Shown one piece after another: positions 356-44,443 of a DNA stretch of 64,000 bases. This stretch comes from Azolla caroliniana (taxonomy: Eukaryota; Plantae; Polypodiophyta): contig JBHGNT010000010.1 of the NCBI GenBank assembly GCA_043228905.1, forward strand, positions 7,502,001 through 7,566,000, written 5' to 3'. The stretch's first letter is position 1, and the number at the start of each line of letters is the position of its first letter. A model generated the notes under the pieces. It saw only the letters and a list, made by a program, of their open reading frames with translations, was not told the origin of the DNA and ran no database searches. Position numbers and translations under genes: made by a program.

Positions 356-1749
356 TACTTCTCATGTGACAGCCACAACTGCGTCTTTGTCCGGTCTTGG
401 ACAATGTGCATTCCCAAGATTTGTTTTTCCGAGCACATATCCTTCATTGCAAAAGACCTGCTCAAAGCCTTTTTCAACAATCCAATTTTCCTCAGGTCTT
501 GTCTGACAATCAACATGTCATCCACGTATAACAGGAGGACGAGGAAATCTCCTCCATCATGCTTCTTCACAAACACATAATGATCGACCTGCAACTTGAG
601 GTACCCTTGGTCGACCATGAAGGATTCGAACTTCCGATATCATTGCCAAGGCGCTTGTTTCAGTTCCTACAAACTCTTCTTCAATAGGCATACCAGGTTT
701 TCTCTTCCCTTCACCACGAATCCTTCCGTTTGCTGCATATAGATTTCTTCCTCTAGGCCTTCATGCGGAAAGGTCGTCTTGACATCCAACTATTCCACTT
801 CAAGGTCCATGTTGGCCGCTATGCTTAGCACCATTCGAATGGATGTCATCTTCATTACCGGGCCAAATATTTCATCGAAATACACACCCTTCTTTTGTTG
901 AAAGCCTTTCGCTATTATTCGGACTTTGTACCTAGCTGGATTCTTGCCTTCTCCCGGTTTCAATTTGTAAACCCACTTGTTTTGGAGTGCCTTCTTTCCT
1001 TTCGGTAGCTTGGTCAGTTCATAGGTGTGGTTCACATGCAAGGAATCCATCTCGTCTTGCATGGCATGTAACCACTTTTTGTTGTGGGCATCTTTCTTAG
1101 CTTCCTCAAAGCTTTCTAGCTCCCCCTCATCGGTTAGCAATACATACTCTCTATCCGGAAATTTCTGAGGCACCCTTCTCACTCTTAGAAGGTAGCTTTG
1201 CCTCCATTTGAAACAGTCGGCTCTTGTTTGGCCTCTTCAGTCAACTCTTCATCGGAATCGGATGCTCGTTCGGCCGATTATCTACTTCCAACTGGCTCTC
1301 CTTGTGTGTCTGTCAGAAATCGTCTCTTGACCAACCCTAGTGTTCCTTAGTCAGCTTTAGACTTTGTCGACTAACTAATCAACCGACTGGTTTGTTTCCG
1401 ACTTCGGTCAAATCGATCGATGTCTGATTTGGCCAATCATCAACTCGACTCAAATTGGTAGCCGGGAAGCCTATTCTCGGTCGACTAGGAGGCTGACCCT
1501 ATCTTCTAAATCTCCAGTCGGCAATCGTCTTATCTTCCATAAAGACGATATCTTGGCTCCGAATCACCTTCTTGTCGACTAAGTCCCATAGCCGATAGCC
1601 GAACTCATCCTCACCGTACCCCAAGACAAGAATAAGCATGGTCGAGTCTTTGGATCTAGTTTTCCTCTTTGGTCCTTTGCAACATGCACGTAGGCAAGAC
1701 ATCCAAACACCCTCAGATGTCGATACAACACGTCTTTTCCAGTTCACAT
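356..1749 (-). mobile_element. Ty1/Copia element A, pol 3' part (end of integrase, RT), pseudogenised
   Basis: Minus-strand ORF fragments with Copia motifs: GYGEDEFGYRLWD, KWLHAMQDEMDSL, NKWVYKLK, IAKGFQQKKG, LLLYVDDMLI, AMKD. Stops and frameshifts present. Confidence 0.92.
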
Positions 1750-2199
1750 TGTTATTGCTAGGGCCGGACAACAACCTAACACAGGGTGTCCACTTAAGAC
1801 ACTTTACCAAATGGTGGTACGGCAGAATGATTTACGGCACAACGCTTAATTAGACCTTAATTGGTTACTTAGCAATCCGTAATTAACACGCGTAAGATAT
1901 AACAATGAATACAGAACGGTAATCAACACTGGAAGATTAAGACAATAAGCTTTATTAATTATCCGCTCCTGATTACATTGTAACCAGGCCTTTATATAGG
2001 TCTCCGGTGCGAAATACAAAACGGTGCCAACCGGCACCTTTACGGGATCGTTCCGGATCCGGATCGGCATACCGATTCCAGTCCATCTCCACATCTTCTT
2101 ATATATTAATTAAGACTATTAATTACAACAGTTCCCGAATAACTATTCCTTTCACACTCTAGTTTGGACCTCCTTAAGCCTTCTTGCCGGCCGGTAGCA
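1750..2199 (-). repeat. 3' LTR of Gypsy element 1750-11420
   Basis: Direct repeat of 10969-11420, tgttattgctaggg...ccggtagca. Confidence 0.93.
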
Positions 2200-2253
2200 C
2201 ATGGCATGCCCGTGGGACAGTACCTTGTACGTCGAACCCATTATCCTGCCCTT

Positions 2254-4668
2254 TTACGCTTCGTCCAAAATGTCTAGAATGCTTTGCTCCAAAATTTCCA
2301 ATGGCTCGTCGGGAATCTGTTGTTGCTGCTGTTGTTCCGTTTGTGGTTGTGGCTGCTGCTCCGTTTGTGGTTGTGGCTCCGTTTGTCGCTCTGGCACCAG
2401 CGTTTCCTTCGTTGGTTCCTCCGTCGGAGTTGTCTGTGGCTGACTGACCCCGGCCTGTTCCCCCTCCGATCCTTGCACCGGCGACGGTTCCTCATCACTA
2501 AGGTTGACCGTTGTCACCTTTCGCACTTTTTCTTCTTGGAGCCGGGACTGCTCATAGCTTTCGAACTGGATTTGAGCCTCCAACCGATCGTCGTCCAGTT
2601 GAGCTACGAGCTGCCGGACCTGCACCAATTGTTCATCCACCAAGGCTGTGAAATCTTCCGCCATCTCATCCCTTATGGCGGTGAAGTCCTCGGAGGTCAA
2701 CGTATAACAGTCGTCTCCCTCCTTTCGCCGGTTTTCCACGTCTACCCTAAGCAATTGGAGTTCCGCCGTATTCTGCGCCCATTTCGCCCACCAACGCACT
2801 GAGCTGTCATCAATCAAGCTTTTGGTCTTAGTGAGCCATGACCGGACGATGCACTGGATCCGTTCAGCTCCCATCTGTGATTTATTTTCTGCGGCTTGTC
2901 GCTCTTCCTTCAATTGCTTGATGATCTGAACCGTGTCCGCCTCCTGCTCCCTATAATGCGACAATTGATTTTGATAGGTTGTTTGCAACCTCTGTAATAC
3001 CATTGTCGCTCTTTCCTTGTCTTCATGGTTCTATTTGTGGAGCTCCATCCAGTCATTCGCTGCTTCCTCCAATAGCCTGGAACTTTCCGCTCGTTCTTCG
3101 GCGAGTGCCGTTGTGGCCCTATCAACTTCTTGTCGGAGCTCAGCCATCCATTCCTGTTGTTGCTTATGCTCTGTCTCCAGCTGCTTGTAGTCCCGATGTA
3201 GATGATCGAAATCATCGGTCTTCTGCTTCAGCCTTTGGTTGATCTGCCGCCGCGCGCGGTCCTCCCAGCCCTTCTGTTGCCGGAGCTCTTCCTTCCGCCT
3301 CTCAATTTCCGTTTCCGCCATCCGTCGCAGCTTGTCTTTTTCCTGCAGCAATTTCTCTTTTTCCTCCTTCAGCCGATCATAAGCATGATGTCCTTTACGC
3401 AGGTTTTCCTCTGCCCGGCGAAGGTTCTCAGTAGTCTTTTTTAATTCTCCTTCGGCCGCCTTCTTCAAGTTGCATTCGCGGCTCCGTAATACGTCTTGTG
3501 CGGCGAGCTCATCTCGTAATTCCGCAAGCTCTTGGGCTTGTGTCACATCTTTCTCTGGGACAGTTTGTGTCTCCGAGGTCTTATTCCTTTGTACATTCAC
3601 CGTAGTCACCGGTGCTTGGATCTACGTTGCGATTAAGGCCATTTTGGCCATATCTCCTGTGATCCGATCCAAGTCTTGTTCGAGGCACCGGACCCTTGAT
3701 CGGGCCGTCTCCAGTTCATCGGTTTTGACGAGCAACCGTTCCGTTTGCGCTCTTTCCTCCACCTCTATGCATCCGACTACTCCAGCAATTTGGTCTCCTA
3801 TCCACCGGAGCCATTAGCTGCGGGTGCACTGTTCTTGCGCTTGCACGGAGAGTTGGCTGATGGGTTCACTCACCGGTGGCTGGTCCCGCCTTACTGCATC
3901 GAGCTGCGCTTCTGGTTCTACCAGCTGACCACTTTGCCGTTCCGGCTCTAAGTGTGTTTCGGCTAGTCGCCCCTTGTCTGCTTGTTCTTGGCCGGCTGGG
4001 AAGGTTGGCCTTTGTATATTCGGCTCTTGAGTTACGGGGCTTGCCGATGCTGCCTGTTGTGCAGGGACTTCTGGTACCTCCCTTGGCGTGGGATGCTCAG
4101 CGTGAGTTGCGGGCGTTCCATCCTTCTGTGGATCCGAACGCTTCCCGGTGGTGCCAACAGGGTGAGCCATTGTGTCACCGCATGCCATATTTTCCAGCCT
4201 TCCTTGCCGTCCTTTCCTCTTACTATATCAATCGTCGTACACAGCCCGTCGGCGATCAGCACCGACCAGTCTACCTTAACCCCTTCGTACATTGCGATGA
4301 TCAAGCATGCTCGGTTCTGAGGCATGAAGGGGGGTTGAGGGTACACGTGGCCGAACTCATGGAGCACTCGGGCAATTTCGCGGAATAGCATATCTTCGCT
4401 GCCATGTGTCCTGTAGCCCTTGCTGGCTAGAGAGTACTCACCGAAGTATTTGATGAGTTGCTAGGAGGTAGGATTGTCGATCGTGTAGATGCCTCCCTCC
4501 GAAAGGCCTATTAACACACGGATCGCCTTCTCCGACCTCTGTGTCGATTTCTTTTATAATCTTTTCGGCCTCCTTGTGTGGCGCCACCTCCATGATCATT
4601 AAGAAACCCTCCAGACCATGCTGTCGTAACCATTTCTTGGCGGCTTCAGACAGCGTTTGGCAGTCCAT
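2254..4668 (-). pseudogene. Additional 3' ORF of the Gypsy element (N-terminal globular part plus long coiled-coil, Q/E/P-rich tail), now fragmented
   Basis: Consecutive minus-strand ORFs 4438-4668, 4032-4391, 3814-4188, 3031-3609 and 2254-3003 between integrase and 3' LTR. E/K/Q/R-rich heptad-like sequence; VDWSVLIADGL motif. Confidence 0.7.
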
Positions 4669-5082
4669 CTCTGCGTCGAGGTCGGAGAGCGTTGGCGAGG
4701 TTTGATGGTGGGGAGACTATGAGAGAGAAAGTTCTGAGGGAGGGGGTTCTCTGTGTGCGAGCTCTCTACGATTGATCTTCACGCGTCGCTCTGCGTCTGT
4801 TCTCCTTGGTTCGCGATAGGAGAAGGTCTCGATGCGTGGGGGTTTTTCTCTCTACATCTTGGCGTCTTTTTCGAGCCTCCGCATGTGCAGGTCGTGTACT
4901 ATAATAGCATTGCGTGCCATGTGGCGGTGGTTTAATGTCCTATTCATAGCTCCTCATACCTTTTCGACGTGCCTCTTTACTCCCCACCCCGTGTGCATGG
5001 CCGTTTCCACCACTCCTTTCCATGATTTATTTGATTCGCTCCTTTATTCTTCTTGTTTTTTCTTTTTTTTTTACTTGTGTGG

Positions 5083-8000
5083 TTAATTTTTCTCCGGTTC
5101 TGTTCGACCTTTACCCGAAACGTGCAACTTGCCGGCCTCTTGACGGTTTGCCGTCGTTTTGCTCTCCTCAGTTGCCGGCTCATGCTCCTCCTTACTGGCT
5201 TGGTGGTAGCCATCGTCTTCACTGGTTGCCCTTATGGTTGGCCTGCCGGCGTCTGATTCGGTGGCGGCCCTTCGTTGAAATGGGTTTTTAGGCATACGTC
5301 CTTTGTATAGTTTTAGTCTAAATCCGTTGACCCATTTTCCCAGCACTTCTCTGGCAAGTGTCCCCAACTGGTAGGACCCATTGAACTCGCGTGTGATCCA
5401 GTACGGTTCGGTCCATCTAAACCGTAGTTTACCTGGCATTTTGCCCATCCGGGTCTAGAACACGAGTACCGGCTTGCCGGTTCCGAACATCTTTTCGTTT
5501 CCCTTATGGTGTTGATCTACAAATGTTTTCCGTCTCCATTGTTCCAATTCCAGGTGCATAATGCTCGCCAGTCGGTGTTCTTCCAATTCACATAGAGCCT
5601 TTAACCGAATTGCCTCCGATTCCTTTTCGTTCAATCATTCCCGAATCTGAATCCGTAAGCTTGGTACCTGGAACTCGACTGTCAGGACTGCCTCTAATCC
5701 GAATGCTAACCGGAACGGTGTTGTTCGGATGCTTGTTTTGTACGTTGTCCGGTAAGCCCAGAGCGCACTGTGCAGCTTCGTGTCCCAATCTGTCCGATTT
5801 TCATTGACGATCTTCCGAAGGATATTCTGGAGCATTTTGTTCGTCGACTCAGCTAACCCATTTGCTTGTAGATAGTACAATGTGCTTCGTTTATGTACTA
5901 CCGCATAGAACGTCGTCAAACTTTCTACCACCTGTCCAAGAAAGTGCCCTCCTTGGTCGCTTATTAGCTCTATGGGGCATCCGTACCGGCACCAAATGCA
6001 TTCGTATAAGAATTTTGCCGTTGACGCCGCGGTGTTGTCTCGTAGGGCTTTCGCTTCCACCCACTTAGTGCAGTAATCCGTCGCGACGATCACTTACCAT
6101 TGCCGATTCTCATTGCCGATGGTTTAAATGGCCCGACAAAATCCAGCCCCCATTTTTGGAATGGTTCTAGTGGTAGGACTGGCTGGTGTGGCATCCGAGC
6201 TTGTTCCGTTGGCTGACCCATTCGTTGGCATATATCACACTCCTTCGCATACCAGACTGCATCTTTCAATGTGGTCAGCCACCATAGGCCACTTTGCCAT
6301 ACTTTCCTTGTTGTCGCATCTCCGGCATAATGACCTCTGGTGACTCCGCAGTGTGCCTCCCGTAGTATTACCTCCTTCTTGTCGGTGTGCACCGCTTGTC
6401 GCCAGATACCGTCCGCACCTTTGTGGTATAGCGTGTCCTGTAATAAACAGAAGTGTCGGCTCTGTACCGCCAGGCGTTTTCTCTCGTCCCGGTTCATCTC
6501 CTCCGGAGGCAATCCGGTACTCAGAAATTGGTGCATATTAGTTAGCCACTTATCTTCTTGTGCCACTGTTTCATCTGTTGTTGTTTCCGTGGTGACTCGA
6601 AAAAGCTCTGCATCCGGAAACTCGTCTGGTACTCCGTCACCTGTCTCCCCCGAATCTAACCGGCTTAGATAATCTACTACCGCATGCTGTATGTCGGGTC
6701 AGTGGAATATCTCGAATTCGAACTCTTGTAACAACAAAGTCCACCGGGCCAACTTACCGGTAAGTGACGCTTTGGATACTAGGTAGAGGAGTACCGAATG
6801 ATCCACATGGAAGGAGAACTTTCTTCCCAGTAAATAAGGCCTGAATTTTGTTACACTGTAGATCATTCCTAAAGCTTCCCTTTCCGTGGTAGAATAATTT
6901 CGTTCCGCTTGGGATAGCTTCTGGCTGGCATAGTACACTGGCCGGTACCACCTTGGCTCGGTAAGCTGCATGAGAGCGCTGCCGATTGCGATATCGTTGG
7001 CGTCCACGAACACATAAAACTCTTTACTCCAATCCGGAGGATGCACTACCGGTGCTTGTGACAATAACACCTTTAGTGCCCGGTACGCCTTGTCTTTGAT
7101 GTCGGTCCATTGGAACGGTGTTCAATGTACTGTCGCATGCAGAGGTGTAGCCAGGTCAGCCAAATATTAGAGCATACGGCTATGCCAGCGGATTTGTCCT
7201 AGGAAACGGCTCAATGCCTTTGCCGGTGCCGGTGCCGGTGCTTCTAGGATTGCTTTCACTTTGTCTCGATCTACGGCAATGCCTTCCTTGCTCACTATAT
7301 GCCCTAGTAGCGTTCCGCTGGACACTCTAAATACACAGTTCGCCGGATTCAGGCTTAGCCGGTACACCCTACACTTCTCTAGACATAGTCCGAGATGCTG
7401 CAAATGTTCTTCTTCTCTGTTATAGACGGCGAAGTCGTCAAGGAACACCTGCATAAAAGCCGGTATGTATTCGCCAAAGATCTCCATGATGATCCGTTGG
7501 AATGTTGTTGGTGCCGTTTTCAGCCCGAACATCATCACCACTGCAACAAACACTCCCCATTCGGTGACGAAAACCATTTTCTCTTGATCCTCAGGGTGCA
7601 TCCGGATCTAATTATACCCGTTGAATCCGTCTAAGAAACTGTAGACTTCATGGCCGGCGACGGCATCCAAAACTCCATCCGTAAACGGAAGTGGAAATGC
7701 ATCCGTTACCGTTGCCGCATTGAGCTTCCGGTAGTCGACACAAACTCTAATTTTGCCGTTCTTTTTCGGTACGACTACGATCGGGCTCAGCCATGTAGAT
7801 TTCTTTATGGGACGGATGAAGCCAACCCTCAGCAATTTGTCGATCTCCTCCTTGACTTTGGCGGCGTAGTTTGGGTTCATCCAGTACCGAACCTGTGCTA
7901 CCGGCTTGGCGTCTTTGCTCAGATATATCTGGTGCTGATACAACTGAGGATCCAGGCCTCTCATATCCTCGTAAGACCAGGCAAATACGTCGCGAAACTC

Positions 8001-10913
8001 ATTGAGTGTAATTATCGCCGTTTTGTTCTCTGCATTCATTTCTTTGGCGATGTGCACCGGTTTTGCCTCCTCCATCGTTCCTAGATTTACCTCTTCTAAT
8101 TGGGACGCTTTTACGCGTTAGGATACGGCCATTTCCCTTTCCAACGCCTCATGTGCATGCCGTAACTCCCGGATTGCTTCTTTATCCGGTTCCGCTTCGG
8201 TTCCGTCCGGGTGTAGTAAGTAGGGTGATACCGCTTCGGCGACGTCAATTTCGAATAGGGGTACAATCTTTGGGTTCTCCAGCAAGTACTGCTCTTCTTC
8301 TTCGTCTGCTAATCCTTCCAGCATATTGACACACTCCGCATATAACGGTGTCAGATCCTTGCCGGTGCCCTTCCTTGGTTGTGTTGGTACCCGTATCTTC
8401 GCTTTTCCCCGCCGAAACATAATCATATTCCTCCTCTAGTTCTGCTTGATATGTGCCGTCTTTAACCAAGGGCGTCCCAACAATAATGGGTACGCTCCTT
8501 GAGCCTGCAACTGGAGAACTACGGCTGAGATTCAGAATGTGTGGCCCCCGATGGTTACTTCCAAGTTCCTTATTAATCCTGTCGGTCACACCGAGCTTGT
8601 GTCCGCCATTCGGAGCCAGAACGGACATGGCTCCCACTCTTGGATTCCAAGAGCATCGCACGTCCGAAGGCTGATTACATTAACGCCGGAGCCTTCGTCT
8701 ATTATCGTGTCGAGGAGTTCTTTCCCTTTCACAATGGCCGTAATTGTCGGACTGTTGGTGTCCACCACAGTCGGTCCTTCCTCCGGATTTGAGAAGAATG
8801 CCGGAGCCGGTGGTGTGCCGCCTGTCGTCATGCCGGGCTTGAGTCCTTCTGTGAATCTTGGTACTAGTTGCAAGAGTCGTCCTAACGCCAACGTGATCTG
8901 GCATTCCTGCAATGCCTGCCATGTCGCGTTTTCGGACTGACTGCCGCCAGCGAGCTCCTCTGTGTTCTCCTTTTGCTGCGTGAGTTCTGTTACGTTTCGC
9001 TCGTTTGCCTTTTTCACCCATTCCGTCGCCTGTTTCCGGATGGCCTCTTGTGTCTCCCATTCCATCGTCTTGCCCTGTGACCTTATGGTGATCTGCTGGA
9101 GGTCTGCGACTTTGGCGACTACCATGTTTACTGCCGGTCGCTTATCATAGCTCTTTGCCGGACATTGATTACTATAATGTCCTTCTTGCCGGCAGTAATA
9201 GCAATATGCTTTCCGGGTGTTGCTGGATTCGACATTGTTTTTTGTACCCGATGGAGGACTTGTGGTAACCGTGGGGCTCTGGTCCGGTTGGTTGCTTGAG
9301 GCGCTTTTTTCCGGTTCACATGGGTGGCTCCCATTTTTGAAATGCCGTTTTTTATTAAAGTTCTTTTTGTTGCGGTACCCTTGCCGGGGTTGGTCGTCAT
9401 ACCTCCCGTAATCTTCCCGTCATTGGTGATACCCGGGGGAGTGATCCCGGTTGTGATGCTCGTACCGTCCATTGTAATCTCGGTACTTGTCATATCTCTT
9501 GTACCGGTCATAGTTGTCTCGCCGATTGTCGTACCGGACATCTTGTGCCGGTCAATATCGCTCCTCTCGTCGCCAGCGTTCGTCTTGTTCGTCTCGGCTT
9601 CTATGTGGCTCGATTTGCCGAACTAGTGGGGCTTGCCGATTCAATAAGTTATATTTGCACCGGTCCATCGTGTGGCTCATAGATTGGCAAAGTAAGCAGT
9701 GCGTCCGCATGGTGCACTCCAGTGACGAGTATCCAGAATTCAAGCAGGTCGTGCATTGGATTACTTGCCGGAAACAGAGATCCTCATCGGTTGGTAATGC
9801 TCGTTGGAGGGCTCCCATTGTTAGCCAAGAGCTCGTTTTCTCCATTTCTCTAACCCAGTCGATGACCTGGTCGACGGTGCTTGTGCGAAAGTCGATGACT
9901 GTGCATACCGTTCGTAGAGGTTCCCGGAGCGCAGCTAAAAATATAGCCCGCGTTTCTTCCTCCGGAGGTGCGCGGGTAAGCTGACTGTGCATCCGTTGAA
10001 ACCGGATGACAAACTGTGGGATGCTCTCCCCGGGGTCCTGCCAAATTGTATAAAATAAGCCCACCATTTCTCGCTGATCCACCTCCTTCTAGAAGAAGTG
10101 CAAGAACTTGTCTTTTAGGTTCGCAAAGGTGGTGATGGTGCTGCAATCCTGCGTCCGGTGACATCTGGCGGCCGGTCCTTCTAATGTCACGCCGAATTCA
10201 GCTATCTTAGATCGTTCCTCTTCTGCTGTGGTTAACCGTTGTGACACATGGTTCGCTTCCCATGTTTGTTCAAACGCGTGAACATGAGCCTCCGCGTCTG
10301 GGTCATCCCAATACTTGGAGTATTGGAACGACATGTCGTTGTCCGGTGTCGGTACGCGGGCTGGCGGTGTCGATGGTCTTTCCTGCTATTCTGTCGGCGT
10401 CTGAGGTCTTTGCCAGTCTTCCTTTGGTGTTGCCGGCTCGACTTCCGGTGTTGGAGGTTTTTGCCGGTGCACTTTCATCTCCGGAGGTTGCTCCACGACG
10501 AGTGCCAGAGGTTCCCGGTCTGCCAACTCTGGTTCCGGTGTTGGTAAGGTATCTGACTCCTCATCCTCTGGTCCTCCTGGGGTGTTGTTACTGCTGCGAT
10601 AGTTCGTATGCGCGTTGTAACCCCCATTCGAATCCAATTCTAGCGCTGAAAATGCTTCGGATTCGCCGTCTCTTCCGGCCAAGGCCTGGAGAAGGGTTTC
10701 CGCTTCCCGGAGGCTGCCTAAGCTGCTTCCTTCGTCCGGGTAGGCGTTTTGTTGCAGACGGAGCGACTCCTCCGCCACTTTCCGGATCACTTTGGAAAAT
10801 GATCGATCCGTTCGGATTTCTTCCACTGCTTGCTGGAAAGCCTCTCGTCGCCGTCTCCGTTCAGCAAGTCTTCGTGCTCTCTCCGTAACCGGGTCGTCTG
10901 TTGGCCTAGTCAT
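5083..10913 (-). pseudogene. Gypsy gag-pol polyprotein (gag, CCHC knuckle, protease, RT, RNase H, integrase), interrupted by stops and frameshifts
   Basis: CYYCRQEGHYSNQCP knuckle (~9160-9210), IIDEGSGVNVI protease, WLSPIVVVPKK/VCVDYRKLN, MFGLKTAP, VFLDDF, FVDANDIAIG/RNYSTTEREAL, HCG..H..C..C, WGLDFVGP, LISDQG. Confidence 0.93.
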
Positions 10914-10968
10914 CCATTCCTACCGTTGTTCACTGCGATTATGCAAGAATCGTGGTTGCCAAAAATTG

Positions 10969-11420
10969 TGTTATTGCTAGGGCCGGACAACAGCCTAACA
11001 CAAGGTGTCCACTTAAGACACTTTGCCAAAGGGTGGTATGGCAGAATGATTTACGGCACAACGCTTAATTAGACCTTAATTGGTTACTTAGCAATCCGTA
11101 ATTAACACGCGTAAGATATAACAATGAATACAGAACGGTAATCAACATTGGAAGATTAAGACAATAAGCTTTATTAATTATCCGCTCCTGATTACATTGT
11201 AACCAGGCCTTTATATAGGTCTCCAGTGCGAAATACAAAACGGTGCCAACCGGCACCTTTACGGGATCGTTCCGGATCCGGATCGGCATACCGATTCCGG
11301 TCCGTCCGTCCACATCTTCTTATATATTAATTAAGACTACTATTTACAACAGTTCCCAAATAACTATTCCTTTCACACTCTGGTTTGGACCTCCTTAAGC
11401 CTTCTTGTCGGCCGGTAACA
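10969..11420 (-). repeat. 5' LTR of Gypsy element 1750-11420
   Basis: Direct repeat of 1750-2199. Minus-strand TATATAAA (~11210-11217) followed by AATAAA (~11171-11176). Confidence 0.93.
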
Positions 11421-13131
11421 CACACTCTTTGTGGAACATCTCCGTCCAAGGGTACTAAGAGTGATATGTTTATCACATAAACATATGTCATCAACGCCGC
11501 AACCCATAAGGTTTTCGGTAACTTTGTGTGAGCAAGCATACTTCTGACTCTCTCCATAATGGTCTGGTTCATCCTCTCAACCAGGCCATTCAACTCTGGT
11601 GTCTTCGGCACAATGTATTCAAGTCAGATAACCTTCGACCAACAATACTCCTCGAACTGCCCTCAGTATTCACCGCCATTGTCTGTCCGGACCGCTTTCA
11701 GCTTCTGTCTGGTTTCTCTCTCCGTTCTCACATGGAAATCCTTGAAGTCCGACAATACCTGATCCTTGGCCTTCAGCATGGAAAGCCACAACTTCTAGTT
11801 ATACCAGCGTGTGACTTTTATCCACATAGCATAAATCTGTATGCAGGAGTTCCAATGTCATTTTCTTCCTAATTGGTGGCCTTAGACGAAAGGAATCCCT
11901 ATTCTACTTGACATCGACCAAGCAATCGGTGCATTTGTCAAGATGCACGTTCTTTATCTCCGAAAGGAGATTCTCTTCGGCAAGCTTCTGCATCCCCTTC
12001 TCACTCATGTGGCACAACCTCTTATGCCATAGCCCATCGGTTGTGTCTGTTGCCACGTTCACTTTGTCCATGCACAGCCGAGCATGCATCAAGTACAATG
12101 TGTTCATCTTCCAGGCACGAGCCACTATCAGGTTTCCCTTGCAAAATTTCAATGTGTTGTTCCGGAAGCTACCACTGTAGCATTCGTCATCCAACCGACT
12201 GGTTGACATCAAATTTACTTTGACTTCTGAAACGCGGCACACATCTCTTAAGACCATTCTACATCCAGTTGATGTGAGCAAACACACATCTCCAATTCCA
12301 ACAATTCGGTGTGCTTCATTCCCCATCTTCACGTATTTGTGATCGTCGATTGTGTATGATGAGAAGATCCTTGGTCGGGGGTCAGGTGAAATGATGCACC
12401 GGAATCGACCATCCATGTCGATTCATTGCCGACAAGATTTAGCTTCTTCTGCTCACTAATGAGCAACAACACCTCACTTGTCGTGATTGCTAATGTGCCC
12501 TTTCTATCTGGATTCTTCTTTGGTTCAACACCATCAACTCCCCCTTTGTTTTTCTGAAAGTGCCGGCAATTCTTCTGGAAGTGCCCTAGCTTCCCATAAT
12601 AGAAGCACGTGGGCCTTCCTCTTGACTTCGACCTCACTCCAGACTTGTCCCAGTTCTGGGGACTTCCTTGCTGACCTCTCCCTTTGTTCGAGTCATCCTC
12701 TATGCCTTCAGGTCGGAAATGGACTCTCTGTCCTTCCGGCGAGCTTCCTCATTTAATAAGATTGACTTCACCTTCTCCAGGGATAGATGCTTCCCTTCCA
12801 GCCCGATGTTGCCCAATGTCACAACGAGCGTCTCCCAATTGTCCTAATGGGATCTTAGCATTAGCAATGTTAATACCTTGTCAACAAGAGGTACTTCTAG
12901 AGAGGTGGTTTGGTTGATCAGGCCTTGGAAGGCATTCAGGTGCTCTGTCATGCTTGAGCCATCATGGTACCTCAGTCTGAGGATCTTTCAAAAGACAGAA
13001 ACTCTGTTAACGGCGTTTTTGTTTTCGAACATAACATCGATCTTCTTCCATAGGACATTTTCCTTTGTCTCTTCATTGAAATTGTTATATAGACGCATGT
13101 CTATAAAACATCTTATGTAGGTTGTCAACAT
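11421..13131 (-). mobile_element. Ty1/Copia element A, 5' part (gag, zinc knuckle, protease, GAG-pre-integrase, integrase)
   Basis: PELNGLVERMNQTIMERVRSML, LWHKRLCHMSEKG, WMVDSGASFH, CFYYGKLGHFQKNC. Gag TYIRCFIDM resembles the element at 63370-64000. Confidence 0.92.
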
Positions 13132-13656
13132 TGTTGACAGATCCCCCGCAACCGACATTATTCACACAAACCAAGCCGGCAAGGGAAAGACACCAACTGC
13201 TAGTATTATGGCAAGAAAGGCCACAAAGAAAGCAAGTCTTGGAGAAAGAAGGCCAATACACACAAATCCAAATCGAGCAAAGTTGATTCTAAAAGGCGGC
13301 AGAGATCGCACTACGTTGAGGGCTCAAGGCATTGCCGAAAGCGGCCCTACATTTGTGATTGTTGAGAATCAAGTCAACCTAGTTTAGTGTGTGAACACGC
13401 CCTTGAGAGTGTGCACTCAAAGGTCAAAAGTCACCACTCTTATCTACACATTAACTATGTGTCATAGAATCATATTCTATGACACATAACTTATGAGTTT
13501 TCACATTCCCCATGACCCATGAGCTTCGGCAGTTAATGAAGAGAGAGGGTGACTATATAAAGCACTCTCCTCCTACTTTGTAATTAGTTCGGTTAATCTC
13601 CTTTGTAATATACATCGTCTTGAGTATTCTATTGTTGTTCAAATCTATCTATCTTG

Positions 13657-13709
<53 letters not shown>

Positions 13710-16700
13710 CACACACACTCACAACACATATCTCTAGTCTATTCCGTTGCACAAGAATTACCATCAATTTTTTACATGGTATCAGAGCGGTTTGGTAGCT
13801 TGACCTCGCCCATCCGCCTGTGTTGAGCTCTACGCCGACGTTCAAGAAGAACCGGCTCATCCCTATCGTAGTGCGACTACATATCTCGTATTCAAGAGAG
13901 AAGAAGAAGGAAGAAATCTACATCGAACACCATGAATACTCAAATGGCGAGTGCTCTCCCTAGCGAGAAGTTGGACCAAAACAACTTCGCATCTTGGGAG
14001 TACAAGATGCATCAATACCTTGTCGATCAAGGCTATTGGAGCTACATCAAAGGAGCACAAGAAAACCGGCCCGACTCGGAAGACGCCGACTATGCAACAT
14101 GGGAGCAAACGGCGAGTCGAGTAATGTATTGCTTGGCAACATGTGTTCACGACCACATGCTCGGTTACATTCGAGAAGCCGAGACGCCAAAGGAAGCGTG
14201 GGAAAATCTACGAAAGATTTTCACCGCCAACACGACCGCGAGGAAGCTTCAACTCCGCCAAGAGTTGAACAACATCCAACAAAGGGATATGTCCATCACA
14301 AGCTACACCTTAAAGATCAAGGAGCTTTGTGATGCACTCGGCTCAATAAGTGTCAATGTGGAGGATGATGAAATGGTGCAAATATGCCTCGGCGGCCTTG
14401 CACCATGATTCGGCGCGATGCGGACCGCCGTACTAGCACGGGGGAATCCACCCTCCTTCTTCGATCTTCAATCTATGTTATTGGTCAAAGAGAATCATGT
14501 TCAAACAAGGAGTAATGCCTCGGAAGGCCACATGGTCTACACGCATTCAAATGGAGGAAGAGGACGCGGCCGAGAAAGAGGCCGATTCGCCCAAGGACGA
14601 GGCGGCGGACGAGGTCCGACTTACAACAACAATTCCCAATTTCGGCAACAAGACGGAAGCCATCAAAGAACCTTCGGAATAAGGGGGAGCTTCCATTCCG
14701 GTTCGAGTCGACAAAACTCGATTGAATGCGGATATTGCGGAAAAATCGGCCATCATGAAGAAGAGTGCTGGAAGAAGAAGCGCGAGTCGGCTTCCACAAG
14801 CCAACAACTCACAAATTATGCCACTAACTCCGATTATGAAGACCTTAGCGGAATGTTCGTGATGAGACATAGAGAAAATTCTATGTCGGCCTCTACTTCG
14901 ACTAATGCCTCCAATCCAGAAGATTTATGGTTTGTCGACTACGATGCTTCGAACCATATGACGTCCCGTCAAGAATGGTTCCGAGACTTACGAGAGCTAG
15001 ATTGACCCAGTTATGTCGAGACCAGAGATGACACCACTCATCCTATTTGACATATTGGCAATGTCCCATTCGGGGAAGACGATGAACAAACTTGTATGAA
15101 AAATGTATTACATGTACCCACCATAACGAAGAATTTGGTCTCGGTCGGCCAAATAGTGGAGCAAGGGATGCAAGTTCAATTCAACCAAGGTGGTTGCTTC
15201 ATCGAGAAGGAAGGTCGACTCATCGCTCGGGGTCGAAGGGAAGGTAGAATGTTTATCCTTGAGTCAAACGAGGTGAAATTGGCCATGTACGCAAAGGGCC
15301 TCAAATCCGACACCGACACAGAACTATGGCATAAAAGAATCGGCCATATCAATCTCAACAAACTCAAGGCGATGCAATCAAAAGGAGTCTTCATCGGGCT
15401 CTCGAACTTCAAAGAGAAAGATATTGAAGGAGTATGTGAAGCATGCCAATTCGGCAAGCAACATCAGCACCTGTTCCCGAAGGAGAGGAACGTGAGCAAA
15501 GGCTTATTGGATGTAGTCCACTCGGATGTGTGGTGACCGGCACTGACGGCTACGTTCGGAGGATGTTAGTACACATGGATCTTTCCCATGAGGATGAAGA
15601 GCGAAGTGTTTGCACACTTCCAAAAATTCAAACGCGAAGTCAAATAGACAACTGGGCATCATGTACGATGTCTTCGATCAAACAGAGGAAAGGAATACTT
15701 CTCTTATGCGTTCACGGCATACCTTCGACAAGAAGGAATTCGACGAGAATTCACTTGCCGACACACACCGCAACATAATGGTGTAGCCAAACATAAGAAT
15801 CAGCACATCCTCGAAGTAGCAAGGGCCATGCTAAATGAGAAGCATATGCCCAAGTCATATTAGGCAGAAGCTGCAAATACCGCTGTCTACCTCATGAACC
15901 GGTACACAACATCCAGAGTGCACGAGGTCACCCCGCACGAGAAATACTATGGGAAGAAGCCGGATCTATCCCATGTAAGGATATTCGACTCCATTGCATA
16001 CGTGGGAATGTCGGCTCCATTGCATATGTGCACATTCCCAATGAGAAGCGGCAGAAGCTTGACCTAAAATCAGAGAAGTGCATCCTCATGGGGTACTCAC
16101 TGGAGCAAAAGGGGTATAAGTGCTTTAACCCCTCTACTCAGAAGACTCATGTAAGTCGGGATGTCGTCTTTGACGAATCGACACCATGGTACAAACCCGA
16201 GCTGACTCCTCCCGAACCATCTACAAACGAACTCGACAACACAGAAGACGATGATCAACTAAGGTCAATACTCTAAGAGAGTCTGATCTCAACTAGATTG
16301 AGCAGACCACAAGAGCCTCCGAGCAACCAAAGCACATCTCGTCCAAGTCCAAAGATGGACAAAGGGAAGGCCAAAATGCCGGAATATGAAGACGATCAGT
16401 TCGACGGCAACGAATCGACTCATTCAGTCGATTGTGAGTTCGGTGGCTTTGATGTACCTCTTATGAGGTCACCCGGAGTTGAGAAAGCACTCACATTGGC
16501 AAATGAGAAACTTCGTCACTCCACCCGAGAGAAGAATCTAGTTAGCTGATTCGGCTACATCGACTATATGGCATACCACTATGCCTTTATAATGAAGGTG
16601 GCAGCAGTTCGAGAACCGGGGAGCTTTGCCGAAGCCGCTAAAGATCCACGATGGGTCAAATCGATGAACGAGGAGATACAAGCTCTCGGGAAGAATGAGA

Positions 16701-17455
16701 CATGGGATCTAGTCCCTCACTCACCGCACAAGAAGGCAATCGGCTGCAAATGGATATACAAAGTGAAGTATAATGTCGACGGTTTCGTCAACCGCTACAA
16801 AGCTCGACTCTTAGCAAAGGGCTACGCACAAACACAAGGCGTCGACTATGAAGAGACCTTTGCCCCGGTGGCAAAGATGACAACCGTGCAAACTGTGATA
16901 GCGTTTGCAGCAGCAAAAGGGTGGCACCTCCTCCAGATGGATGTCAAGAACGCTTTTCTTCAAGGCGAATTAGAAGAGGAGGACATGATACAACCACCCG
17001 GCTTCGAATCCAACATTCATCCGAAAGCTATATGCCAACTCAAGAAGCCCCTCTACGACCTTAAGCAAGCACCATGTGCTTAGCACTTGAAGATAACACA
17101 ATATCTTCATCGAATCGGTTTCCGAATGTCAAAATCCGACAATTCTCTATATGTAAGAAGCGATTCCGAAAGTCCGATCGTCATCATCCTATACGTGGAT
17201 GATATGGTCATTGGAGGTGAGCATCTAGTCGACATCAACAAGGTCAAATCCCTCCTTTCCAACAAATTCAAGATGACGGACATGAAAGAGCTCCACTACT
17301 TCCTTGGCATCGAGGTAATTCGAACTCCAACCGGGATTATGATCTCCCAACGGCATTACATTCTCAACTTGTTATACAAGTCTGTGGCAACACCTCTCGA
17401 CCGAAACCTCAAACTAGATGCCAATTCTGGCACCACAGAGTGTGAGCTGACTCAG
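13132..17455 (+). mobile_element. Ty1/Copia element B (5' LTR, PBS, gag-pol), truncated within RT
   Basis: LTR 13132-13776 (TG...CA) then PBS TGGTATCAGAGC. Gag (KLDQNNFASWEYKM), CGYCGKIGHHEEEC, DASNHMT, LWHKRIGH, VHSDVW, KARLLAKGY, LYVDDMVI. Many premature stops. Confidence 0.93.
13777..13788 (+). other. Primer-binding site (tRNA-iMet) of Copia B
   Basis: TGGTATCAGAGC directly after the LTR terminal CA. Confidence 0.9.
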
Positions 17456-28997: not shown

Positions 28998-30531
28998 ACC
29001 CTCAATTGCAACATACATTGGTAAAGTTCTTGAATATCAAGAGTTGCCACTCATTGTTGCATACGTGAAATGTAATATTTTTGGTCTCATAAGTCGTATT
29101 TGACCTCTGAAGACGATAATGGAATCTATGTATCTCTCTCTCTCTTTGTACAAAACCTCTTTCATCAAGTTCACGAGCAATGAGTTGGTTTCACATGGGG
29201 ATAGAACCGATGGTAGTAACGGAACCCAAAATGAATGAATGAATGAATGAAGCAAGAATTAGGAATCGGCTTAACCGGTTTGGGACTTTTTTAACTTGAA
29301 GAGAGAACCAGCCCCTAACCCTGCTTGGCCGAAGCCAGTTCGGTTCAGCTTGAGCCTTGCCAAACCGGTTTATGGTCTCGGCCAACAAACAATATGAATG
29401 TAGCCGGTGAAACCTCACAACGCATATGTCCGTTTGCCGTCCGTCCGTGTGAAACCGGCCGGCCAGCCTGAAAGCGACAGCCGTTATTTTATTTTTGCTG
29501 GTTTTGAAAAATAAGATGAAGAAAAAAAGGGAGGTTTTGGCGGGAGATCAAACGCTCTCTCCCTCTTTCTCTCTCTGTGCGCTTTCCCGCCAAAAATTCG
29601 AAGGGACGAGGAGACGATATTGATAGACATACATACATGTCTCTCTCTCTCTATCTCTCTCTCTCTCTCTCTCACTGCGCGCCTGTGTGTTTCTCTAGTC
29701 AGGGGTTTTTGACAGATCGCCTTCGGCTCCCAAGGTAAGCTCCTACCCCTCCAATCGGCTATGGCTTGATCGTCAAACTTGAATTTTAAGCAGATACCTG
29801 CAGGCTTCTCTGTGTGTGTGTGTGTGTGTTGAAACTCTGCTTCTTCTGTCCTTAGACGTTTTGAGGATTTCTCAAGTTAAAGCTCTGGCTTAATTTTCTT
29901 TGCATCTTCCGTCATTTTCGTAATTAACGAATTAAGACATTCGTACTGAGATCGATGCATTCTTTTCTGAGTGGTATAATACTTCTTTGATCTATGATAG
30001 TAAGCTTTAATGATGCTCCTGTTAATTATGCAGCAACGGCTGGAGATCTTTCTGGAGGAATACTCTAACCTTAACACAGATTATATGTCGTTTGCCGAAG
30101 TGTAGTAATACTTCGACATCTCTAGGAGTGAAAAAGATAATCCAAAAACGCAGAAATCCTTGTGCTTTCACATTGCATTTTGCATCGCCAGCATTGCAAA
30201 ACCTCTTTGACTTTAACTGAGTTTTAATTCTTACGGCATGTACAAAGCCTTCAGCTTTCGCTGTGTTTTACATCTCTAGAACTGCAGAATTCATTCAACT
30301 GAAACAGCATTCTACTTCGCCAAAACTGCCGAAATCCTTCAACTGCGTATAAATGGTGCATGCGTCCTTCATGTTTACTACTCTGGAAGTGCGGAAATAG
30401 TTCAACTTGGATGATATATGCATATTCTTCAGAGTTCTTTACAGAAAGCAGAATCACATCAATTTCCTTAAACAATAAAAAACTCTTCATCTCCTTCAAA
30501 AGTCTAGACTGAAACATCACGAACATCTACT

Positions 30532-32222
30532 ATGGAAGTTGATATGTATTATGCAAATGCAAATTGTTTGGTGGACGTTCTTCCTGATGCGCTAGTGCAA
30601 CATATTCTCTCGAGTCTAAAAAACGCGAAAGACATAGCTTCTTGTTCTTGCGTTTGCAGGAGGTGGAGAGAAATCATGACTCAGATTCCGAGTCTTCATT
30701 TTCCCAGAACAATCGGTGATGAAAAAGGCTACAGTTTTACGGACAGGATTGTAACACGGATGATTCTCTCTACAAGCTCCCTAAAAGAACTCATTGTCTA
30801 TTGTTCTTTCTCATCGGTAAGTCTTGCCGCATGGATATCGCATACAAAAACGTCTTTAACACACTTAGAGATTCGTGTGGACGATTTATCAGATAAACAA
30901 CCATTAAATAGCAGCATGTGCAAGATAGACCAATTGGCAAGTATAACAGATCTTCAAGCATTGCGCCTGTGGGGTGTTCAGCTTAGTGAAAGGCCTCATT
31001 GGACATCATTTTCAAGCCTATTTACCCTGGAAATCGTGGGAGCTCGATTGCACGATCAGGCTTTAAGAGGAATTCTCAATGCTTGTCCGTCTCTTATTAA
31101 CCTTACCTTGCTTGGATGTAGTGGGATACGGTATGCTGCTGTGGATCAAATGCTTGATTTGAAGCGTTGTAGACTTGATTTCTATGGTTCTGGTGATTGT
31201 TGTATCATCATTTCTGCTCCAAAGTTGGAATTTCTTGAAGTTCAAGGTGCCTCATGTATTCATGTCTCTGGCGATCACTGCTTGCGGCATCTCTCCATCG
31301 CTAATATTCAAGGTTTGTAGAAAGGGAAAGAGATGGCTTCTAGTATCTTTTACTTATATACATAGAGAGAGGTAGCATCTTTGTAATGGTGGAAAATTAG
31401 GCAGTGCTGCTTGATCCCTCGGAGCAGAGTTTAGAAATATTCCTTTCTTTCCTGTGGGTGTAGTTTTACATAATCATTATTTAAAAGCTCTCTTCCTGCA
31501 ATAATAATAATAACTGTTCAGAGTCAGAGAAACTATCAAAATCTAAAATCATGTCTTTGGGATCAGATGATCAAGATGCTTCTAGTCATGATATTTGTGC
31601 ATAAAAATCTCTCTACTTGTACAGGAAAAGTAAAAAAACTAGAGGTTGGAAGGCTCTCTGAGTTAAAGTCATTGTCTCTTCGAGGAGTACAATGGTGTTG
31701 GGAAGCTATAATTACAGCATTGCGCAATGCAAGCGAGCTCGAGGACCTATGTATGCGAGTGGAATTCTGTGGAGAAGGAGACAAGCTGGAGCCATTTCCA
31801 GAAGTAGACTTAGTAGATTTCTTCTCATGGTTTCCTAAACTTAAAGCCTTTGAGCTACAAGGAGCTATGTTTGCAGCATTATCACATAGAAATAGCCTCT
31901 CAAAAGTATGCCCTCTATAAACCATTTTTTGCTTTGTTTATTGCTTAAATCTTTTTGGGTACTAATTTCTGTTCATTTTCTGTCTCAGCTCACACCCGCA
32001 TTTTCCATCGAATGCCTAGAGAGAGCTTCTTTCACCATAAGGTCTCCATTGAATGCTGATCAGAAAATCACTACTCTGGAGGCTTTTCTCAAGTGCTGCC
32101 ATAACTTGAAGGTTTTGGTTATCAAAGTGTCTCAAATGAAGAACTGTGAATCTGTTGCAGACGAATTTTTCATGAAGATCTTGGGTTTGAAATTTCAGTA
32201 CAGCTTCATACAGATCGAGTAA
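30532..32222 (+). CDS. F-box/LRR-type protein, At1g10780-like, 3 coding exons
   Basis: F-box LPDALVQHILSSL...CVCRRW. Exons 30532-31312, 31625-31905 and 31989-32222 with GT-AG and consistent phase. Conserved SLRGVQWCW, EPFPEVD, GAMFAAL, RSPLNADQK. Probable 5'UTR intron donor at 29734. Confidence 0.92.
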
Positions 32223-38415: not shown

Positions 38416-41400
38416 TTGTGATGAATGAATAGACACCTATTTATAGTCCTTATGGAGTATTCTAGAATGTTCTAGAATATTTATAATATTTAATATAATC
38501 ATGGAATATCCTAGGATGTTCTAGAATACTCTAAATATCTTGTAGTAACTAATAATACATTTATTATAACTATACATCATATATGTTATTATAATGGTTA
38601 AAGCTCTAACATATAGACCAAGATGTTTTAGGCTTGAATCCTTGTAAGACCAAAATGTATGTCTTCTTGACATTATCCCCCCTTTTCGACGACGAGTTCC
38701 ACGAGTCGGAAGACAAGATTTCGGACTAGGCTTATTTCGGATATTTGTTGTGAAACGCAACAACCATTTCGGAGGCATTAGCAAGATTCTCGAGAGGTTC
38801 CCATGTTCGATCATTAGGTGTATAACCTAACCAATCAACCAAATAATACAATTTTTTGCGAACGATCTTGGAGTTGAGAATGGCAGCAACTTCATATTCG
38901 GAGCCATCCGAAACTTCGATTAGAGGTGGGGGAGATGTAAGACAACCTAGAATAGAGCTAGTTGTGTACGGCTCCAAAAGTGAAACATGGAAGACGGGGT
39001 GAAGATGCATATGAGGGGGAAGATCAAGGCGAAATTCCACATCATTGATCTTACTAGATATCATATATGGACCAAAACATTGATAATCCAATTTGTAGCA
39101 AGGCCAGGTTGTTTTAATGCGACCTTGTAAAAGCCATACTCGATCTCCCACTTGAAATGTAGTCGATGAATCACGTCGATGAGGGTCGACAACCTTCTTT
39201 TGAGTGTTTTGAGCATCACATAAATGGTGCAAAAGGATATCTTGAACTTCTTAGAGTCGGGTGAGCCGATCTTCAGCAGCGGAGTTTGTTGGGAGTTCAG
39301 GATGTTCAAGCATAGTCCAAAAAGGATGGTACCCAATGTTTGCAAAAAATGGGGAATATCCAGTAGAAGAATGTTCTAAGTTGTTGTAAGCAAATTCCGC
39401 TAAATGTAATAGATCAACCCAATCATCTTGTTGATAGTTGACAAAACAACGAAGATATTGTTCTACTGTTTGGTTGGTGTGCTCACTCTGTCAGTTAGTT
39501 TCTAGATGGTAGCCGGAAGAGAGTTTGAACATGTGTCGTCAAAATTTTGAGATGAACTGGGGACCCCGATCACTGATAATATCATCAGTAAGACCATGAT
39601 GCCGAAACACCTCTCGCATGAGTAACTTGGTTGTCTCTTGGCTCGTAATGGCCTTTGCGTAGGGAAGAAAATGTGCCATCTTGGTAAAACGATCTACTAC
39701 CGTGAGAATAGAATCAAAGCCCTTGGAAGGTGGTAGATCCGTAATGAAGTCCAATGAAATAGATTTACATGGACTCTAAGGGATAGGCATTGGCTGTAAT
39801 AAGCCATATGGATGATGTCGAGGTTTTTTGGATCGACAACATGTATCACAACTACGAACATAATCCGTAACAAAATGGCGAAGTCATGGCCACCAATGCC
39901 TTCGAGAAATTAACGCCAAAGTCTTTTGGATGCCAAAATGTCCAACCATTGGTGTATCATGGCTTTGTTGCAAAACTTGGAGTCAAGAAGGACCATCAAG
40001 CACATATAAGAGATTTTGTCGAAAAAGTAAACCATCATGGTAATTGAATTGGTTGTAGTCTTGACGAGGATTTTGATATTGTGAACAAGAAGCACGATCT
40101 GGGATAATATGGTTCAGAATGTCTTGGGGGAATTCATCAGGCTCAATATGCTCCCGAATGGAGTCCTGAAGACTTGAATCCCCGGGTGTGTTTATAGCAT
40201 GAAATGCCATTAGTTGTAGACGGTCAAGAACCAAGAGGATTTTCTTCTGACTTTCAAATGCGGCCTCTCTTGATTGAAGTTCCATATACGAACGCCCTTG
40301 GCTGACAAACTAATCTTGGGTTCTTTTGTCGAGGTTTGAACTTCTGCCGCTTGTTGTTGCAATAGAGTAGTCTCCAATTGATGCACCCATTGAGATAATT
40401 CTTCATATTGTTGTACTTTCTCAGCTCTTACTTGTTGTAGGTCTCCCAAAAATCTTTGATTTTCATACTCTAGTGCCACGAATTTGGTTGTTAGCATGTC
40501 GATCTCGGATAGAACACGCATATATTCTTGCTTGCTCACGGACTCCATAGTTATGAGAGAAAATTACTAGATTTGCTTGAATAAGGTTAAGATAAGAAGA
40601 AGAAGTTGGAGAAGAAGAAAAGAGAGATATTCGGTTCAAATTGTCGTGACTTGAGAATAGGAGAGAGAAAGATAAGATGACAATTGAAGGTAGAGAGAGA
40701 GAGAGAAAGAGAGAGAAAGAACACTAGAAATGGAAAGAGAGTTTATATTATAAGAGAGCAAGGATTACAAAGAGTAGGCCAAGGGGCTACAAACTGGTGT
40801 TGAACCAAATGAGTTATGATGAATGAATAGACACCTATTTATAGTCCTTATGGAGTATTCTAGAATGTTCTAGAATATTTATAATATTTAATATAATCAT
40901 GGAATATCCTAGAATGTTCTAAAATACTCTAAATATCTTGTAATAACTAATAATACATTTATTATAACTATACATTATATATGTTATTATAATAGTTAAA
41001 GGTCTAACATATAGACGAATACGTCTTGGGCTCGAATCCTTGTAAGACCAAAATGTATGTCTTTATGACAGGTGAAAGTGTCTTGAACATCGACTCGAAT
41101 TTGAGCCTTAGGTCCTTCTATATATATATTTCTCCTAAATAAATTTTAGACTTTAAACATTTGTATAAAGAGGGGTATGTAAGACTATGTAAGACTTGGC
41201 ATGCAAGAATTAGTAGGCTTGATATTATAGTATGTAAGACTTGGCATGAGCATGCTTATCATGCATCACTACATATATAAAAAGGGTTGATCTTCCTTTT
41301 AACATCAAGGAGATCAACACCAGTCATGGAATAGATATTCTTACTCATTGTCATCAACTTCCCCATCTCTCTATCTCATCAACTTCCCCATCTCTCTATC

Positions 41401-43260: not shown

Positions 43261-44404
43261 TGATTCTAATATGTAAATCATCGATGTAACTCATACACAA
43301 ACTAAAATCATATGTATTGGTTATAAATGTAGAAAGACGACCACTATGTTCGTTTTTTTTTTCAAAACTCAATTCACCACAAGAGCCGACTCATACTAGG
43401 CAACATTGAAGGCCATCGCCTTAGATATAGGTAACTTCTTACATTAAGTTAGGCCGCAAGGCATTGTAAGTAGGCTGATCTTCTTTTACTTGATCGGAGG
43501 TAGACTCCCCGATGTGTGTATAAGTCTCCTTGTAGACTCTATATGTAATAATCCTTCCTAACTAATGGGAAAGTAGCTTCATTTTGGAAAAAAATAAAAT
43601 AAAATAAATCATATGTATTGGTTATAAATGTAGAAAGACGACCACTATGTTCGTTTTTTTTTTCAAAACTCAATTCACCATAGTTATGGTCTAGTTTTGG
43701 AACATTCAGGTTGTGAAGAAAGCCTCTTGAATCCATCTTCACCATGAAATAAACGTTGTTGTGAAGAAAACCGTCCACAAGCGGAATCGGTGCACTGGAG
43801 CGTAGGAACTGGCTCTTCATGCACGTGCGTCTTATGTAGTACATAAGAGAGAATTAGGTACATAGAAGATCCTAGGTAGGTAGATTCGGTAGGTAGGAAG
43901 TTAATGGGAAACGACTCCTTTCTTGCCTATAAAAGGAGGGAGACGAGGAGGGGGGAAGGATCGCGCGGAGAGAGGACGAAGTGCTGTCGGGTTGTGGACC
44001 GAAGGCTTCTCTCTCTTCCATACTCCGTAGCTTCTTTCTGTGTAGGGTTTCAGGGAGGCTCGCGCTGCTCTGAGGAATGCCCGAGTGCTTCCGGCAGCAC
44101 CTCCCACCTACTCCTTTCTTTCTGAGCGTTTACGAACAGGCATTGGCATCTGTTCGCCGGCCTTTTCGGTTGTAACCGCCTTCGTGCTTCTTGTTGTTTG
44201 TCTCTGTTAATATATACATACATACCTTCGTGTCTCTCTGTGTCGGTTTCCCGCTCGCGTCTTTGTGTCGAAGGGCCGTGTCCCTATGGATCTACGCTCG
44301 CACGTGGTGGGTCCCTTCCCTTCTCCTTTGTCTCTTGCTCTTCGGTACAAGACCCCCGAGGCCCCACCTCATTCCACGCATCCGCGAGGAATACCTCGAC
44401 ATCT

Positions 44405-44422
44405 TGGTGAACCCGACGTGAA
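44405..44422 (+). other. Primer-binding site complementary to tRNA-Trp 3' end
   Basis: TGGTGAACCCGACGTGAA, separated from the 5' LTR by 3 nt; complements ...TTCACGTCGGGTTCACCA of plant tRNA-Trp(CCA) as recalled. Confidence 0.8.
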
Positions 44423-44443
44423 AGAGGCGGCAGAAGAGCAGAA

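Follow-up and report, generated by a model that had tools for sequence, protein, structure and literature searches.

Background

Retroviruses and the Ty3/Gypsy branch of LTR retrotransposons share a common organization, comprising long terminal repeats (LTRs), a target-site duplication, the domain order gag-PR-RT-RH-INT, a tRNA-binding site at the 5' end and a second primer site adjacent to U3 (PMC5371799). Across retroviruses and LTR retrotransposons, starting the plus strand from a polypurine tract (PPT) encoded by the element itself is regarded as the norm (PMC5371799, PMC6317226). Sites that bind a tRNA through two segments have been described in Ty1, where a small internal loop separates them, and in Ty3, where the T arm participates; these sites lie on the genomic RNA and prime the first strand (PMC5371799). 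Drosophila gypsy carries two tRNA sites, one per end and both on the RNA, of which the 3' one, matching the anticodon and T stems, is dispensable (PMC1635307).

In plants, the Tat, Athila and Phygy group of non-chromoviruses is characterized by 5-bp target-site duplications, an extra 3' ORF and the lack of a chromodomain, the duplication in Phygy being of 4 bp (NCGN); tRNA-Arg is the dominant primer-binding site (PBS) of Ogre (89%) and TatIII (64%), and tRNA-Asp that of Athila (72%) (PMC6317226). An inverted tRNA site is not among the features reported in the portions of that survey available to us. The terms PBS, PPT and tRNA do not occur in PMC10508981, nor in the main text of PMC13468544, which deals with the Tat-zero clusters. 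In the literature covered, which included part of PMC11963269 and lay mostly outside subscription journals and repeat-database reports, we found no account of a tRNA site that takes over from the PPT.

Here we analyse a Ty3/Gypsy element in a window of 64,000 nucleotides (the whole stretch of Azolla caroliniana DNA under study), in which a site complementary to a tRNA 3' end stands in the place of the PPT. In contrast to the sites of Ty1 and Ty3, complementarity of this site to the tRNA is confined to the strand opposite gag-pol, and unlike the 3' site of Drosophila gypsy it abuts the LTR in inverted orientation and takes in the CCA end. We consider it quite probable that the element belongs to a lineage of plant LTR retrotransposons without a PPT, in which host tRNAs would start both strands, the second through the cDNA or an antisense genome and from a split site of 27 nt.

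Results and discussion

A high-copy Ty3/Gypsy insertion

The element at 1750-11420 is a genuine Ty3/Gypsy insertion of high copy number, whose gag-pol runs on the minus strand. LTR alignment placed its repeats, both in minus orientation, at 1750..2199 (3' relative to gag-pol) and 10969..11420 (5'); they have TG...CA ends and, once aligned, share 435 positions, with 15 mismatches and 2 gap columns (96% identity). Comparison of the flanks revealed CACAT at 1745..1749, also marked by empty-site joins, and CACAC at 11421..11425, i.e. a 5-bp duplication with one mismatch, within the 4-6-bp range of Ty3/Gypsy elements. Empty-site contigs, in which 1744 continues into 11421, were recovered in three of four runs, and summed depth, which is not equivalent to copy number, was high in 30 of 30 bins of the element in all four. 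By ORF reading, the insertion sits within a Copia-like coding region. The Copia-like coding pieces at 1-1749 and 11421-17100 represent one element interrupted by the Gypsy, and another Copia-like element lies on the plus strand from about 13870.

Between the LTRs the domains follow the gag-PR-RT-RH-INT order of Ty3/Gypsy, with the coding region broken in pieces. The gag and protease region (8586..10919) was recognized by zf-CCHC in the window, and a relative (L047) yielded a Retrotrans_gag match plus weak protease matches in Pfam; reverse transcriptase and RNase H follow at 6699..8117 (RVT_1, RT_RNaseH; 1559 homologues) and integrase at 5083..6698 (Integrase_H2C2, rve). The Pfam matches to zf-CCHC, RT, RH and integrase all run on the minus strand, confirming the orientation that an earlier reading, made from the sequence only, had given to gag-pol. 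An extra 3' ORF, likewise on the minus strand and in pieces (2254..4460), ends 12 nt from the tRNA block described below. In relative L008 it is a single frame of 1170 aa (L008:1381-4893) on the same strand and between pol and the tRNA block. Its C-terminal piece has 29 homologues; no Pfam family exceeded the cut-off in the window or in L008, and no family could be assigned, all atlas scores being below 0.8.

Orientation was further examined in the 70 related loci kept, 21 of which gave tblastn matches. Gag, integrase or the extra ORF lay opposite to the strand of the tRNA motif in 20 of these, the exception (L062) being a weak match (E 2.6e-6), upstream of the motif, to the gag of the other Gypsy element of the window. 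Two loci (L014, L070) consist of short units, 2.3-2.5 kb long, that carry both tRNA sites but gave no gag or pol matches, and are likely to represent non-autonomous members; in L070, two units have one LTR in common.

A split tRNA-complementary block at the 3' LTR junction

The plus strand reads TGGCATGCCCGTGGGAC at 2202-2218, 2 nt (CA, 2200..2201) inside the LTR end at 2199. A search allowing up to 3 mismatches found this 17-mer, already pointed out in the sequence-only reading, a single time in the window, with 0.04 occurrences expected in shuffles. That reading had taken the motif to end there, and had missed a hairpin and a second segment: the site extends over 2202-2241 as a block of 40 nt, made of the 17 nt, an A, a 4-bp hairpin with a 3-nt loop, and a second conserved segment. 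The proximal segment (2202..2218, plus strand) occupies the expected PPT position and complements tRNA nt 76-59 with one tRNA base unpaired; the hairpin (GTAC-CTT-GTAC) is inserted at 2219..2231, between the segments matching tRNA nt 59 and 58; and the distal segment (2232..2241, plus strand), identified by its pairing relative to an inner control, complements the T arm (nt 58-49).

Alignment of four runs over 2165-2262 showed a depth at 2213-2220 that was 15-38 times the depth at 2241-2244, with mixed loose ends before 2198 and behind 2240. Only two substitutions reached 2%, 2197 G>A and 2207 T>C, the latter C accounting for 93-96% of the summed depth where the window carries T, and no indel reached 2%. 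The depth peak, the mixed loose ends and the absence of indels together indicate that some 40 nt are common to many families that differ on both sides.

Related loci were collected by scanning metagenome contigs for exact copies of the 17-mer, which gave at least 122 matches in at least 120 loci. Fifty of 122 matches failed a junction filter, nearly all of them GC-rich, bacterial-looking chance matches; one real element (L025) failed for want of upstream sequence and was restored to the later sets, while three bacterial-looking loci that passed (L011, L107, L116) were excluded from later counts. An LTR-like end before the motif and the block behind it were found in the 65 matches with sufficient downstream sequence, and the spacer was 2 nt in 56 of 68 junctions. 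The same layout recurs in families whose LTRs do not align with that of the window (in L008, a 12-nt local match only). These loci derive from a single series of assembly accessions and so do not sample plant diversity independently. Selected by the exact 17-mer, they are mostly collapsed repeat contigs, so the two junctions around one LTR may stem from different copies. Rfam gave no match at 2100-2400, ARAGORN detected no tRNA within the window, and scans of viral contigs gave nothing.

Hairpin covariation and fit to tRNA-Arg

Among 50 distinct blocks, including that of the window, the hairpin was paired in 92.5% of cells, and two-sided changes were observed at all four pairs (GGAC/GTCC, GTGC/GCAC, GTAC/GTAC, GGGC/GCCC). 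Its covariation score of 0.555, which kinship of the sequences inflates, compares with 0.236 after shuffling, where none of 500 shuffles reached the observed value, and with at most 0.17 in slid controls. This covariation suggests that looping-out of the hairpin has been selected.

We sought the tRNA end implied by the block with a self-built pattern; the 14 prokaryotic loci that matched were all tRNA-Arg (13 TCG, 1 TCT). Motif searches of papers and of five supplements of PMC6317226 yielded no plant tRNA sequence, and a bacterial tRNA-Arg (L127) was used as a stand-in. Against it, the block of the window pairs with 27 of the last 28 nt, including two G-T wobbles, in the order 11 nt, one tRNA base skipped, 6 nt, 13 nt looped out between tRNA nt 59 and 58, and 10 nt; every block leaves one tRNA base without a partner. 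The distal segment paired at a mean of 9.1 of 10 positions in the 50 blocks, versus 6.2 of 10 in an equal best-offset search 20 nt further in. Opposite tRNA U55 there is an A in 30 of 50 blocks and a G in 20, and never C or T, at an offset chosen for best pairing; of the 20 blocks with G, 15 fall into one group with a GGAC stem. Both A and G pair with U only if the strand of cDNA sense binds the tRNA in trans. The block is also able to fold on itself, with an energy no better than that of shuffled sequences in four of four blocks; such folding would compete with binding of the tRNA.

Absence of a polypurine tract

A PPT is absent in either orientation. Within the 20 nt ahead of the window's 3' LTR, purine runs reach 3 nt at most, in agreement with the sequence-only reading, which had seen no purine tract inside the LTR at 2199. 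Sister families have no PPT at this place: in the 80 nt before the 3' LTR, of which the nearest 17 are fixed by the 17-mer search, the longest run ranged from 3 to 8 and was mostly 4-6 in all 50 blocks. On the antisense strand, the longest run in the 30 nt before the other LTR is 5 in the window and 3-9 among 15 LTRs, where the runs of 8-9 (L029, L052, L014, L070) sit behind the tRNA-type 10-mer and do not abut the LTR. The second Gypsy element of the window served as a control with an ordinary layout, having a G-rich tract on its coding strand with 14 purines in the 20 nt before the 3' LTR.

This second element (43757-50629, plus strand) has a TGGTGAACCCGACGTGA site, which we take to be a PBS of the tRNA-Trp type, in addition to the G-rich 3' tract and a 4-bp ACGT duplication, and fits the descriptors of Phygy; taken by itself, such an element would point to a moss as host. 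Elsewhere in the window, an integrase end at 38732-39250 (minus strand) carries what we assume to be chromodomain-like sequence, possibly a remnant of a Tcn1-type chromovirus, and a piece of a plant F-box/LRR gene lies at 30508-31320 (plus strand; Streptophyta clusters), which identifies the host as a land plant.

The gag-side junction

At the opposite end, the TGG motif proposed in the sequence-only reading is present on the minus strand, where 10961-10952 reads TGGCAACCAC, 7 nt inside the LTR. This putative gag-side PBS of 10 nt (10952..10961) is TGGCGACCAC in the closest relatives (L019, L043), of which the window version is likely a decayed form. We take TGGCGACCAC to match plant tRNA-Arg(UCG). 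A TGG-starting 10-13-mer was found behind the 5' LTR, at a distance of 2-7 nt, in the window and 14 related loci, in the latter as TGGCGACCAC (n=4), TGGCACGCCCGGT (n=5), TGGCACGCCC (n=4) or TGGCACACCC (n=1). TGGCGACCAC also opens a human ERV PBS labelled Arg or Trp in the part of PMC4724089 consulted. On the gag side of the 28 element loci with at least 380 nt upstream, 12 cross the LTR and have the TGG site on the gag strand, two show an LTR start with flanking DNA, one is a fold-back (L058) and 13 have no clear LTR start. In L014 and L070 both sites flank one short interior. The gag-side 13-mer retains the G that is missing from the 3' block and matches the bacterial stand-in tRNA (L127) exactly.

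The 3' motif is conserved, its block being common to many families, and both junctions are complements of tRNA 3' ends. The gag-side site alternates between two 10-mers while the 3' site stays constant, so the two sites need not pair mutually. Pairing between the element's 3' tRNA-like RNA and its own 5' site reaches 10-11 bp where both sites share one type but amounts to only 4-5 bp in the window, L019, L043, L029 and L072, and was discarded as a general rule.

Two relatives, L029 and L052, differ in the gag-side 10-mer before an unchanged TACG context. Read on the gag-pol strand, their LTRs show no difference for roughly the first 260 nt, up to some 45 nt past the TATA box, and diverge beyond, in U5 and the gag-side 10-mer. 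The breakpoint may mark the R region through template switching, or reflect an assembly mosaic. In L058, positions ~960-1620 form a palindromic fold-back LTR with a hairpin-type tRNA site on both sides, possibly an aberrant product of reverse transcription or an assembly artefact.

Promoter signals and polarity

The sequence-only reading had derived polarity from a TATA box and an AATAAA signal in the LTR, only the former of which holds. A TATA-like box on the gag-pol strand (1992..1998, minus) is conserved among LTRs, being located 140-264 nt into the LTR in 13 of 15, including the 2.3-2.5-kb units that have no gag or pol matches. Antisense TATA-like matches occur in nine of 15 LTRs at scattered or palindromic positions, and none was found in L036, L061, L027, L035, L014 and L070. 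AATAAA is present in the LTR of the window alone (one of 15) and was dropped as an argument for polarity.

Relationship to described lineages

The sequence-only reading had linked the element to the Tat lineage, and in the strict sense this link fails. No RNase_H or RVT_3 match was obtained in the 34 minus-strand ORF pieces of the window or in the post-integrase ORF of L008, and PF13456 is not listed for two full polyproteins (P0150, P0152); lacking the additional RNase H, the element is not Tat as defined in the portion of PMC6317226 available. No match to the Athila ORF-1 family PF03078 was found in the window or the relatives tested, and no Chromo match in pieces 5086-5454 and downstream. 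The type of PBS further appears to differ from the tRNA-Asp of Athila, and the 5-bp CACAT/CACAC duplication differs from the 4-bp one of Phygy.

In a quick integrase tree of 45 rows, the window element grouped with L008 and three unnamed proteins (support 100), followed by five further unnamed proteins (91) and by three proteins of the liverwort Riccia (93), the nearest named integrases. It fell outside the angiosperm clade holding P0230, a protein that bears Athila ORF1, in a tree whose deeper nodes are not firm. The Tat-zero clusters Z1 and Z2 of non-seed plants, basal to Tat in RT trees, likewise lack the additional RNase H according to the part of PMC13468544 consulted, and such clusters, compared by description only, are the likeliest named home of the element.

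Proposed tRNA priming of the second strand and alternative explanations

A layout conserved across families, with a covarying hairpin and a fit to the tRNA-Arg 3' end of another organism, is what is observed; the priming of both strands by host tRNAs, as suggested in the sequence-only reading, is what we infer from it as the best explanation, the motif being conserved and no PPT being present. Both junctions point a tRNA 3' end toward an LTR. If the genome is of gag-pol sense, the 3' block is complementary to tRNA only on the first-strand cDNA, and on balance a host tRNA likely anneals there and primes the second strand, so that host tRNAs would prime both. The LTR promoter would yield an RNA of gag-pol sense, on which a tRNA would prime the first strand at the 10-13-nt gag-side site. 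Once RNase H had stripped the RNA, the cDNA would expose the 40-nt block; a second tRNA-Arg could then anneal by means of its acceptor strand and the two halves of its T arm, with the small hairpin looped out, and reverse transcriptase would extend its CCA end into U3. Like a PPT primer, this would define the edge of the LTR, here at 2 nt from the CCA. The hairpin together with the second tRNA-pairing segment is the best evidence for this tRNA-priming reading.

Different scenarios might account for the same layout. The RNA of the element could act as its own primer if RNase H cut the genomic RNA after the CCA of the tRNA-like stretch, perhaps through the specificity by which it removes tRNA primers, the stretch thus substituting for the PPT. 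We regard this as unlikely, even if it would place the CCA end at the same 2 nt from the LTR, would use a piece already hybridised after first-strand synthesis with no need for a structured tRNA to anneal to DNA, and would agree with the ability of the mRNA strand to form a T-arm-like hairpin. It leaves unexplained why the distal 10 nt can pair with the T arm (9.1 versus 6.2 of 10) and why the variation is restricted to A and G, which alters a T-loop letter on the RNA and keeps pairing on the cDNA strand; the hairpin presumably could not form while the RNA is in a hybrid. More improbable is a genome of antisense RNA, in which the 40-nt block would be a Ty1-like split PBS for the first strand and the gag-side 10-13-mer would prime the second. 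Of the two tRNA sites, the block is longer and more elaborate, and its spacer has the usual short length (the gag-side spacer being 2-7 nt); PMC5371799 describes the Ty1 first-strand PBS as split around an internal loop, and the PPT is missing in that orientation too. On the other hand, it is the gag-pol strand that carries the conserved TATA-like box (13 of 15 LTRs), six of 15, short units L014 and L070 among them, have no antisense match, and all protein matches of the element run in the other direction. The switch of the 10-mer before a constant TACG also resembles a site copied from its primer, a weak point since the PBS of Ty1 and Ty3 is not inherited from the tRNA (PMC5371799). An antisense genome would need two tRNAs as well, and dual tRNA priming in one direction or the other is therefore fairly likely.

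It is very improbable that the block binds tRNAs or their fragments for strand transfer, packaging or as a decoy while another primer starts the second strand. Drosophila gypsy offers a precedent, its second, 3' tRNA site being dispensable for cDNA synthesis, but there it is the genomic RNA that complements the tRNA, at the anticodon and T stems (PMC1635307), whereas here the RNA is identical to the tRNA and its CCA end abuts the LTR; furthermore, the 80 nt before the LTR contain no other primer candidate. A one-off rearrangement or assembly artefact, through an inverted interior or the fusion of two elements, is hardly credible. Rearranged copies such as the fold-back LTR of L058 do exist, but the target duplication and the 96% identity of the LTRs, the empty-site joins in three of four runs, the depth in all 30 bins in four runs and the repetition of the layout in families with non-aligning LTRs (L008) largely refute this explanation. 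Self-priming by an LTR sequence in the manner of Tf1, and a role as a Pol III B box, were weighed on inspection by eye and dropped.

Conclusions

Elements of this kind are likely to be called backwards or incomplete by annotation tools that rely on PBS and PPT for orientation. A high-copy lineage of several families without a PPT implies that the start of the plus strand can be rewired. If priming by host tRNAs at both ends is true, a rule common to retroviruses and LTR retrotransposons would be broken. The element would need a reverse transcriptase able to extend a tRNA with DNA as template, together with an RNase H removing the tRNA at both ends, and the synthesis of both strands would depend on the tRNA pool of the host, perhaps including tRNA fragments.
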